Positions 1 to 1,552 of a DNA stretch of 1,552 nt are shown here, one piece after another. The stretch is from the NCBI RefSeq assembly GCF_013315695.1, contig NZ_CP054362.1. The stretch is one strand, 5' to 3'. This DNA is from Escherichia coli (lineage in GTDB: Bacteria; Pseudomonadota; Gammaproteobacteria; Enterobacterales; Enterobacteriaceae). Under the pieces are notes generated by a model. The model did no database searches, was not told where the DNA came from, and saw only the letters and a program-made list of their open reading frames with translations. The number at the start of each line of letters is the position of its first letter. Position 1 is the stretch's first letter. A program made the position numbers and the translations under genes.

Positions 1-50
1 CCTGTCGCATCCAGGGTGACACAACGTTGTCGCATCCTGGATGCGACAAC
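1..50. repeat. Two tandem ~25-bp imperfect direct repeats (1-25, 26-50); the second unit is a perfect 25-bp palindrome (gttgtcgcatcc-t-ggatgcgacaac). Candidate Rep operator or iterons.
   Basis: Read directly: units 1-25 and 26-50 match at 19 of 25 positions. Arms 26-37 and 39-50 are exact reverse complements. Each unit has a CCWGG (Dcm) site at its centre (11-15 ccagg, 36-40 cctgg). Further GTTG/CAAC-type palindromic motifs lie at 21-30 (acaacgttgt) and 54-66 (caaca-agg-tgttg). The function is inferred from position upstream of the rep-like gene. Confidence 0.55.
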
Positions 51-63
51 ACGCAACAAGGTG

Positions 64-93
64 TTGCACAGATGTGTCATGATGGCTTAGATT
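64..93 (+). promoter_or_regulatory. Putative sigma70 promoter for the rep-like gene: -35 TTGCAC (64-69), 18-bp spacer, -10 TAGATT (88-93)
   Basis: Hexamers chosen by eye; 3/6 and 4/6 matches to consensus, with A2 and T6 of the -10 conserved. An alternative -35 is TTGAAC at 93-98, but it lacks a good -10. Not supported by any transcript data. Confidence 0.3.
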
Positions 94-121
94 TGAACCA
101 ACGTTAGTGCATGGGATTTTT

Positions 122-127
122 AGAGGG
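122..127 (+). promoter_or_regulatory. Shine-Dalgarno sequence (AGAGGG) 8 nt upstream of the ATG at 136
   Basis: Purine-rich GAGGG core with standard spacing to the start codon. Confidence 0.6.
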
Positions 128-135
128 AAAAAATC

Positions 136-612
136 ATGTTTATTGATTCAGAAAAACGACTGAAACAACTTTCAGATGAGGCAAAGAAAAACACCGAGGA
201 TCTCGAAGAAGCAAAGAAGAATTCAAGGTTTACACAGGTATCCCCAAAAGGTTGGGAACGCGTTCGAGAGCTGCTGAAGGATAGCCAAGGCATATCAGCA
301 CTGAAGCTGTACTCATTTTTAGCGGAGCATATCGATCCTACGTGTGGCGCTGTCGTTGCGGATCAGCAATTCCTAGCTGAAAAACTTGGAGTTAGCAGAA
401 GCACAATTATTCGTTGGCTCAATTACTTAGAATCAAAAAATGCATTAGTTAGAATCCCCGTTGCTGGTAAGGTTTGTGCGTATGCCCTCGATCCACATGA
501 AGTCTGGAAGGGATACAACACTACGAAAAACCATGCAGCATTTGTCACTAAAACACTGGTCAACAAAGACGGTGATATTCAGCGCCGAATCATGGCCATG
601 TTTTCAAATTGA
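136..612 (+). CDS. repA: Small winged-helix replication initiator protein (RepA/RepL-like), 158 aa, about 18 kDa
   Basis: Only ORF with a proper RBS and ATG start, ending in TGA at 610-612. Its GC content is clearly lower than the downstream DNA. A helix-turn-helix motif is visible at residues ~77-100 (QQFLAEKLGVSRSTIIRWLNYLES, nt 364-435), followed by a wing-like beta region (VRIPVAGKVCAYALDPHEVWKG). Iteron-like repeats sit directly upstream. The Rep call and the symbol are inferred from architecture and motif resemblance, not from a search. Confidence 0.8.
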   Translation: MFIDSEKRLKQLSDEAKKNTEDLEEAKKNSRFTQVSPKGWERVRELLKDSQGISALKLYSFLAEHIDPTCGAVVADQQFLAEKLGVSRSTIIRWLNYLESKNALVRIPVAGKVCAYALDPHEVWKGYNTTKNHAAFVTKTLVNKDGDIQRRIMAMFSN

Positions 613-948
613 GCCAGCGGCAGGCGGACAATCAGGGGCTACGTGTTAACGTTCTGACCATGATTGTCTATCCTGCATTGCTCTTTTGCCGCCTCAAAAT
701 CCCTTGCGTGTTTTTGCTCCCCGATCTCCAGAACGACCGAGCCGCCACGGTTCCGGCAGCGCCTTGAGCGCAACCGGAAACCGTCTGGGGAGAACCCCAG
801 ACCCCCATCGCTGTAACACCGACGGTCTACGACCACCTACCAACCGAGTGACTGCCTGTACCGTGCAAATGGGCTTTGCAGGGGGCTGGCGCGGTTCCTG
901 GCGACCTGAAAGCCCCTGGCTAGGGGTATCGGCGCGCCTGACCTCCTG

Positions 949-969
949 AAACGCTCTGTAAGCGTTTTT
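949..969 (+). terminator. Hairpin aaacgct-ctgta-agcgttt followed by tt; weak candidate intrinsic terminator or single-strand structural element
   Basis: 7-bp stem (949-955 pairs with 961-967), 5-nt loop, T-run 965-969. The stem is AT-rich and lies ~340 nt downstream of the rep stop, so a terminator role is uncertain. Confidence 0.2.
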
Positions 970-979
970 CGCGCCTTCC

Positions 980-995
980 ATGCCCTGACGGGCAT
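980..995. other. Hairpin atgccc-tgac-gggcat (6-bp stem, 4-nt loop)
   Basis: Exact inverted repeat read from sequence; function unknown. Possibly part of a single-strand initiation or priming signal. Confidence 0.3.
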
Positions 996-1106
996 TTAAA
1001 CCCCGCCTCGTGCGTCTGAGAGCTTCTGAGCGCGTTTGAAGGGCTATCTGACGACTCATCCCCGAAAGAACAACAGCGGAATCACCGACAACATGCGAGA
1101 GGTGGC

Positions 1107-1168
1107 ACCGCTCGCCGCAGCCCCAGCGACCGAACGTTAGTGAGCGAGTGGGCGAGGAAGCGGAAGAG
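1107..1168. other. ColE1/pMB1-like conserved non-coding segment, matching the block just downstream of the ColE1 replication origin; candidate lagging-strand priming (primosome assembly) region
   Basis: accgctcgccgcagcc...gtgagcgag...gcgaggaagcggaagag closely matches the pBR322/pUC backbone sequence as I remember it. No RNA I/RNA II-like sequence precedes it. The priming-site function is an inference. Confidence 0.45.
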
Positions 1169-1204
1169 AACCGGAAACCACATTGAGCACGTACGCACTG
1201 ATAC

Positions 1205-1229
1205 GGGGTGTCGGGGCGAAGCCCTGACC
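1205..1229. repeat. Left arm of a perfect 25-bp inverted repeat (ggggtgtcggggcgaagccctgacc)
   Basis: Exact reverse complement of 1434-1458, separated by 204 bp. Confidence 0.9.
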
Positions 1230-1397
1230 AGATGGCAAACGGAATATCGTCGCGGGTGACGGTATTACATTTGCACATCCTGTCCCGATTTCTGCGGGGG
1301 TTAACGGTGAACGGACGGCAAAAAACGTGCAGGAGCTGTTGAACGTGAAAACCACGAAATCTGGCAAAAATCACGGCTGGCGAGGCTTGCAGAGGAG

Positions 1398-1458
1398 TAA
1401 GCCAGTATACACTCCGCTATCGCTACGTGACTGGGTCAGGGCTTCGCCCCGACACCCC
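1398..1458 (-). other. ColE1/pMB1-type oriT (bom) nick region; predicted nick on the minus strand near 1400-1403 (CTGG/CTTA on that strand)
   Basis: The minus strand reads gggtgtcggggcgaagccctgacccagtcacgtagcgatagcggagtgtatactggctta, nearly identical to the pBR322 bom/nic region as I remember it. Nick position is by analogy with ColE1 relaxase (MbeA) cleavage. No relaxase gene is present in the window. Confidence 0.6.
1434..1458. repeat. Right arm of the perfect 25-bp inverted repeat; this arm belongs to the ColE1-type bom/oriT homology
   Basis: Exact reverse complement of 1205-1229. The sequence corresponds to the bom-proximal pBR322 segment gggtgtcggggcgcagccatgacc with a few substitutions. 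Confidence 0.9.
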
Positions 1459-1460
1459 CA

Positions 1461-1489
1461 AAGGGCGTTGCGTTGCGCGCAACACCCTT
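1461..1489. repeat. Imperfect inverted repeat containing a perfect 12-bp palindrome GTTGCGCGCAAC (1472-1483)
   Basis: The 12-mer is self-complementary. Flanking aaggg (1461-1465) and ccctt (1485-1489) extend the dyad, with a duplicated gttgcg on the left arm. Confidence 0.7.
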
Positions 1490-1490
1490 G

Positions 1491-1552
1491 CCTAGAATAG
1501 ATCTTTTACGCCGATTTGTAAGTTGTTGTTTTTTTAGTGTGTTTTTTGTTTA
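1491..1552. other. AT-rich tract with T-runs; possible DNA unwinding element of the origin if the element is circular and joins to the repeats at 1-66
   Basis: Composition read directly (T7 and T6 runs, gttgttg motif). The origin role is an inference from its position next to the repeats across the putative circular junction. Confidence 0.3.

Follow-up and report, generated by a model that had tools for sequence, protein, structure and literature searches.

The closest described counterpart of the plasmid analyzed here is pKL1, which PMC3526173 presents as a "selfish" plasmid with repA as its only gene. According to PMC3832669, the pKL1 oriV is situated upstream of rep and combines several Rep-binding sites with an IHF box and a perfect inverted repeat; the same paper cites Burian et al. 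2003 for the hexamerization of pKL1 RepA, and secondary citations hold this protein to be required for replication, acting in trans. The pHW126-like replicons (pHW126, pIGRK, and pIGMS31) are small gammaproteobacterial plasmids with a winged-helix-turn-helix (wHTH) Rep that has a variable N-terminus, lacks HUH, is auto-regulatory, and is distantly related to RepL, and their origins combine iteron-like repeats with a conserved region and an ssi-like element that is dispensable. Nicking as well as both theta and rolling-circle intermediates have been reported for pIGMS31, whose RepM protein also nicked pUC18 non-specifically. RepL of the pSN2 family (pNE131) is an initiator that resembles RepA in mass (about 18 kDa), in the central position of its HTH, and in being encoded by a very small plasmid; plasmids of the pSN2 type are regarded as rolling-circle replicons with an ssoA, which is needed for lagging-strand synthesis, whereas no such element was recognized in our sequence. 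[quoted passage not shown]

Our analysis indicated that the window (the whole stretch of DNA analyzed, 1,552 nt) is a complete circular plasmid of 1552 bp and that the product of 136-612 is, with high confidence, RepA, the plasmid's own replication initiator and the product of its only gene. Full-length 100% identity to the window was found by megablast in dozens of 1552-bp records, including E. coli pVR50I (NZ_CP011143.1) and a plasmid of JJ1886, as well as records from Klebsiella, Enterobacter, and E. fergusonii. The rep/ori part was present in 331 of the 5426 complete E. coli genomes (~6%), nearly always plasmid-borne. At the DNA level, the window shares 94% identity with pKL1 (NC_002145.1, 1549 bp), which has the same gene order, the same upstream origin (98% identity over window 1-770), and an identical RepA, with no functional difference in Rep. 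The protein accession WP_000469298.1 is common to pVR50I and pKL1, and the exact sequence is that of UniProt O07102. Burian's work of 1997, 1999, and 2003 on pKL1 is reported, going by titles and secondary citations, to cover RepA essentiality, autorepression, and hexamers. The initial annotation, made from the letters alone, had guessed that this winged-helix protein is a Rep and had described the assignment as resting on context; the guess was right, but its footing is firmer, because RepA is identical to a studied protein and the assignment does not come from context alone. The Rep protein of the plasmid is therefore already known as the published pKL1 RepA, and nothing new comes from the protein itself. 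The PGAP name for the product, only 'helix-turn-helix domain-containing protein', understates the gene, which is why its correct reading matters.

ORF length alone is no evidence for a gene in this plasmid, because a minus-strand ORF of 226 aa (694-1374) exceeds the repA ORF in length. This ORF was rejected as a gene, since frameshifts interrupt it in both pKL1 and a pBuzz-like plasmid and it has no family matches, and two further ORFs in the GC-rich half were likewise frameshifted in relatives and without family matches. The repA gene differs from that of pKL1 by four synonymous and no non-synonymous changes, as against a divergence of about 9% of positions in the non-coding module; 79 of the 89 differences between the window and pKL1, several indels among them, fall within the non-coding 613-1464. 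This pattern points to purifying selection on repA. The lack of non-synonymous changes, together with 692 homologues, indicates that repA is a genuine gene and that the plasmid has no other conserved gene, in keeping with the earlier claim of a 158-aa protein encoded by a sole gene, and no second conserved ORF was found beside repA in the window. The repA frame opens just four codons 5' of the ATG at 136, which makes this ATG the sole possible start. The coordinates of the gene and of the surrounding features are collected in Table 1.

Table 1. Features of the 1552-bp circular plasmid, in window coordinates
Feature	Position	Strand	Remarks
Pair of direct repeats, 25-bp spacing	3-25 and 28-50		Core TGTCGCATCC; proposed RepA-binding sites
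Perfect 12+1+12 palindrome, GTTGTCGCATCC-T-GGATGCGACAAC	26-50		Proposed RepA-binding site
repA leader/promoter region with further half-site-like sequences	51-135	+	E.g., 62-70 TGTTGCACA, 94-112; proposed autoregulation operator
GAGGG, likely ribosome-binding site	122-126	+	9 nt before ATG 136; putative, read from the sequence
repA	136-612	+	158 aa, ATG start, stop included; equals pKL1 RepA
GC-rich non-coding DNA	613-1106		Hairpin-rich at 700-810 and 880-990; common to pBuzz-like plasmids, partly to IncX1-type and other plasmids
ColE1 pas-like block, contains GAGCGAGGAAGCGGAAG	1107-1168	+	82% identical to ColE1 1308-1367 (between ori and bom)
IncI1/B/O (R64-type) oriT mimic	1202-1291	+	Inverted-repeat arm GGGGTGTCGGGGCGAAGCCCTGACC, nick region ...GCACATCCTGTCCCG
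ColE1 bom-type oriT	1398-1464	-	Opposite orientation to the IncI-type oriT
AT-rich, T-skewed tract at the circular junction	1500-1552		Proposed origin-opening region, from composition
Box TAAGTTGTTGTTTTTTT	1519-1535		Family-conserved, within the AT-rich tract

In RepA (~18 kDa), a single winged helix is preceded by an N-terminal helix that is long and charged. AlphaFold2, run with 67 diverse homologues, gave a confident model (pLDDT 90.9, pTM 0.78) that placed the N-terminal helix at residues 3-27 and the winged helix at residues 37-118, with helices at 37-47, 50-64, 77-84, and 88-100, a beta-hairpin wing at 104-118, and short C-terminal helices thereafter. The HTH that had been called clear from the letters, QQFLAEKLGVSRSTIIRWLNYLES, corresponds to residues 77-100 and coincides with the helices 77-84 and 88-100 of the model. 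Both copies of the EAKKN motif described as a duplication in the charged N-terminus are present (residues 15-19 and 25-29), and the underlying DNA repeat (175-191 and 205-221) is 82% identical; within the family, it is the second KKN alone that is conserved (N29 in 85%), the first copy being lineage-specific and lying within the N-terminal helix. The WKG motif, placed by the initial annotation in a wing-like C-terminal segment, was found at residues 124-126, with W124 invariant among the 67 homologues, but it stands just after the wing rather than in it.

A search of 5.8 billion proteins returned 692 RepA homologues, almost all on contigs of 1-4 kb, and tblastn located the protein in 575 plasmid records, mostly single-gene plasmids of 1.1-3 kb, from genera including Escherichia, Klebsiella, Salmonella, Yersinia, Serratia, Pseudomonas, and Vibrio. 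In Pfam, RepA matched HTH_36 (3.5e-8), and its own match to RepL (PF05732), the initiator type of which its C-terminal part had been thought reminiscent, was weak (E 0.0043, 17 bits); at the family level the link is solid, with 34 of 67 members matching RepL at E<=0.001 (best 4.5e-10). Alignment of the family profile to pNE131 RepL by hhalign covered 101 columns with 92.8% probability (E 3.8e-7), spanning residues 27-136 and including N-x2-F-x3-Y-like and LNP-E motifs. A Foldseek search of AFDB50 returned the protein's own family and then directly RepL-annotated proteins of Bacillus and Staphylococcus, at about E 1e-7 to 1e-14. pBuzz-like plasmids encode a Rep, named RepL by PGAP, that is also homologous to RepA (45% identity) but has 179 aa, and a second ORF of 95 aa lies after it. 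Taken together, the comparisons support RepA as a member of the RepL (pSN2-type) superfamily, within its proteobacterial branch, at a distance of about 18% identity from pNE131 RepL, whose hosts are Firmicutes.

Matches restricted to transcription regulators unrelated to replication, the outcome that would have spoken against a Rep, were not what these searches gave. Matches to the regulator families MarR, GntR, and DeoR were weak (E 1e-3 to 0.1) and confined to about 30 HTH residues, an NCBIfam scan of RepA yielded sub-threshold HTH matches only, and a PDB sequence search with the family profile gave HTH-level matches only (best E 0.0037). No full-length match to one-component wHTH regulators (MarR, GntR, DeoR, ArsR) was found, all scores being far below curated cut-offs. 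These HTH-level similarities, the PGAP name, the label Col(MG828) given to the plasmid, and the two ColE1-derived blocks in its non-coding part could be read as signs that the protein is a mere transcription regulator or copy-number repressor and that a ColE1-like RNA-primed origin is hidden in the 940-bp non-coding part. Such a reading is effectively excluded: neither RNAI, RNAII, nor any other Rfam family was detected on either strand at E<=1, the ColE1-like blocks are bom and a segment downstream of the ColE1 ori rather than RNAII/ori, and close relatives of the gene reside on plasmids of 1.2-1.4 kb without the non-coding module. The identity of the protein to the published pKL1 Rep and a RepL homology that extends over the whole core, beyond the HTH, likewise speak for RepA as the initiator.

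When the family plasmids (n=8) were rotated to the rep start codon, a common upstream layout became apparent. An AT-rich box, TAAGTTRTTGWTTTTT, is conserved in seven plasmids from six genera, and in these seven relatives it is followed by a pair of repeats that are spaced by about 25 bp and contain inverted half-sites, and then by the promoter. A site with one mismatch to the IHF consensus (1519-1531, minus strand) overlaps the conserved box and is the only such site; taken alone, the IHF pattern at this position is not above chance. The region of the repeats and palindrome (3-50) folded as single-stranded DNA with a z of -5.4. The upstream repeats differ in sequence from plasmid to plasmid though the architecture is the same, as would be expected for cognate initiator sites, and those of the pBuzz-like plasmids also differ from the window's: TTTGCATGTGT. 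The cognate origin is thus predicted to lie just upstream of repA, across the circular junction, in a layout that agrees with the pKL1 oriV as published. A promoter scan found no sigma-70 consensus promoter upstream of repA. A 15-nt repeat (95-109 and 1128-1142; 13 of 15 matches) was discarded, about one such pair being expected by chance in 1552 bp. The rep/ori part has a GC content of 36-52%, as against 55-65% in 613-1464. The replicon accounts for about 700 bp of the plasmid and the hitch-hiking cargo for about 850 bp.

An origin of this kind invites comparison with iteron plasmids. The pHW126-like origins have four 20-bp iterons, as opposed to the two 25-bp-spaced repeats in the window, and the two are likened here by description. 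If RepA were a classical iteron-type theta initiator (Rep_3/RepE/pi), its monomers would bind iterons, its dimers would repress, and DnaA would assist. We regard this as very improbable, given that the model contains one winged-helix domain and not a WH1-WH2 pair, that no Pfam Rep_3 or RepA_N match was obtained, that there are two direct repeats only, and that matches to the DnaA box in the window equal chance expectation.

In the account that has the best support, RepA acts as initiator as well as autoregulator. The mechanism would begin with the binding of RepA to the repeated and palindromic sites at 3-50, and probably to half-sites further down to the promoter, where it may oligomerize, hexamers having been published for pKL1 RepA. 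IHF would bend the conserved AT-rich box, and RepA with IHF would open or otherwise activate the adjacent AT-rich tract, after which host enzymes would replicate the plasmid. Binding of RepA at its own promoter would repress repA and so set the copy number; such autoregulation is suggested by analogy with the pHW126-like Reps and by what the pKL1 papers announce in their titles. We infer the order of these events, the autorepression, and the first chemical step. For that first step, we lean slightly toward a melting-type (theta-like) reaction, at a little under even odds, because no nickase-like feature is present in the sequence and the origin is iteron-like; nicking of the rolling-circle type is a strong contender, and a mixed mode is an outside chance.

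The possibility that RepA is a rolling-circle initiator, introducing a nick into one strand at the conserved box or the repeats or close to either, concerns the replication mode only and leaves RepA as the Rep. We hold it to be quite plausible, though somewhat short of an even chance, and the same degree of belief applies to its second half, namely that the + strand is displaced during leading-strand synthesis and then made duplex from an ssi in the non-coding module, for instance the pas-like block. In its favor are homology to RepL of the pSN2 family, a family assigned to the rolling-circle type, the relaxase activity of the distantly related pHW126 Rep with the loss of one origin from a two-origin construct, the nicking by pIGMS31 RepM within its own origin with rolling-circle intermediates, and the publication of pBuzz, with a Rep type 45% identical to RepA, as a rolling-circle plasmid. 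Against it, RepM nicked pUC18 without specificity and pIGMS31 also gave theta intermediates, and neither HUH, Rep_trans, nor any other recognizable nuclease motif was found in the RepA family, Pfam Rep_1, Rep_2, and Rep_trans having no matches in RepA or the 67 family members. The family alignment contains no conserved His column (maximum 46%), hence no conserved His pair, and no acidic cluster. Y116 is the sole well-conserved Tyr (94%), and since it aligns to Leu in pNE131 RepL, no catalytic Tyr is common to the superfamily. The palindrome has a 1-nt loop, unlike nick-site hairpins, and the AT-rich tract, the IHF-like box, and the direct repeats together give the origin an iteron-like appearance. 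As for the ssi, the pas-like block is on the + strand and oriented as in ColE1, but its single-stranded fold is no better than that of shuffled sequences (z +0.7, +1.5), and family members without the block exist. The scientific question here is the working of RepL-superfamily initiators, which carry none of the known nickase motifs although relatives replicate by rolling-circle or mixed modes, and a plasmid of 1.5 kb with a single gene lends itself very well to answering it.

A variable segment was noticed at the boundary between the origin and the gene. Residues 1-31 of RepA (window 136-228) share 26-39% identity with five relatives, as against 73-89% for residues 32-158, and nucleotide similarity to three relatives begins abruptly at nt 228/229. 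In the same plasmids, the upstream repeats (window 1-135) differ and the recognition helix of the HTH is almost unchanged. The Rep of pEc45_4, 78% identical to RepA as a whole and almost identical in the winged helix, has one substitution in the recognition helix (I92K), and the repeats of that plasmid are different. Because this helix is near-identical where the repeats differ, a reading of the repeats by the recognition helix is not established. The origin repeats and the first 31 codons may behave as one variable module, either a specificity/incompatibility cassette or a less constrained region. It is conceivable, if rather unlikely, that RepL-type initiators use an undescribed chemistry, in which a hexamer-forming protein with a single winged helix would nick DNA by means of a new active site or would open the origin as a ring-shaped oligomer, with residues 1-31 and the repeats as an exchangeable specificity module.

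The remainder of the plasmid changes the picture of a near-minimal replicon drawn by the initial annotation: about 55% of it (613-1464) is non-coding, GC-rich (55-65%), transfer-related cargo, and relatives without it exist. This part is wholly or mostly missing from pKPHS6 and from Yersinia, Salmonella, Serratia, and Pseudomonas relatives, so it is not needed for replication by the RepA family. Conversely, pBuzz-like plasmids (1.8-2.0 kb, e.g., CP090274.1), with a different Rep, share 608-1463 at 95% identity, including the two inversely oriented oriTs, and pEc45_4 carries the module at 89-90%. The oriT arrangement that we read from sequence alone equals that published for pBuzz. The hairpin-rich stretches 700-810 and 880-990 gave single-stranded DNA folds with z of about -2.4 to -3.3.

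In an IncI1/B/O plasmid, the sequence located 12 bp upstream of nikA shares 92% identity with the IncI-type oriT of the window. The window's IncI-type oriT folds as single-stranded DNA with z = -3.25; we take its nick position to lie in the GCACATCCTGTCCCG region. In the bom-type oriT, 59 of 60 positions (1398-1457) are identical to ColE1 bom/oriT (NC_001371.1 1462-1521), with the nick presumably at CTGG/CTTA on the minus strand. The arms of the two oriTs (1205-1229 and 1434-1458) form a perfect inverted repeat of 25 nt with 100% complementarity. No relaxase gene was found in the window. Because it has two oriTs but no encoded relaxase, the plasmid would have to be of the orphan-oriT type, hitch-hiking on helper plasmids with a relaxase acting in trans; in this it differs from the pHW126-like plasmids, which encode their own Mob relaxase. 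Over half of a "cryptic" plasmid would accordingly be equipment for riding IncI/B/O conjugative and ColE1-type mobilization systems. The ColE1 segment that matches the pas-like block presumably holds a PriA (n') primosome-assembly site, as assumed from the n' sites of ColE1/pBR322, and the block may be a primosome-assembly or single-strand initiation site. Relative to bom, it is oriented as it is in ColE1. A 41-aa 'replication protein' annotated over the equivalent of 1107-1168 in p13C1079T-3 was taken as spurious.

Parts of the module also recur elsewhere. The segments 806-995 and 948-1100 show 74-81% identity to non-coding DNA of other plasmids: in IncX1-type/MPF_T plasmids (30-46 kb), one match to 806-1100 is situated some 700 bp upstream from the replication-initiation gene, and in a 28.6-kb plasmid a match to this region lies between RepA and CcgAII. 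These matches could be ssi signals or further oriT mimics. In pTMSA992 (NZ_KR905387.1, 3001-4215), an IncK2/Z conjugative plasmid, a pBuzz-like RepL plasmid is integrated beside oriT/mobA, which is consistent with oriT-oriT recombination. The 7475-bp record NZ_CP019270.1 is an approximately four-fold tandem repeat of a 1.9-kb pBuzz-like unit and could be a multimer or an assembly artefact.

The composite structure bears on plasmid typing as well. PlasmidFinder/MOB-suite assign this plasmid type to Col(MG828), and pVR50I is listed in PLSDB as Col(MG828), "mobilizable", with one annotated CDS; the Col(MG828) marker, carried by such plasmids, has been reported in 530 of 880 ST131 genomes. The same Col(MG828) type is given to the pBuzz-like plasmids and to pEc45_4, whose Reps share 45% and 78% identity, respectively, with RepA and which have the non-coding module 608-1463 in common with the window. 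Because plasmids with differing Reps and the same module receive the same label, the typing marker is probably located in the transferable cargo module and not in the replicon, in which case the Col label would mislead.

Several database records call for comment. NZ_CP104674.1 (1123 bp), considered as a natural deletion derivative, was rejected, being a linear record of an incomplete contig that equals 1091-1552 joined to 1-661. Under the label Corynebacterium renale, NC_004833.1 (1488 bp) matches window 613-1105 and RepA residues 53-158 at 100% identity; since the plasmid is otherwise confined to Enterobacterales, this suggests contamination or mislabelling. Protein-search matches labelled Bacteroides, Gardnerella, and Acinetobacter look like similar cases of mislabelling or contamination.
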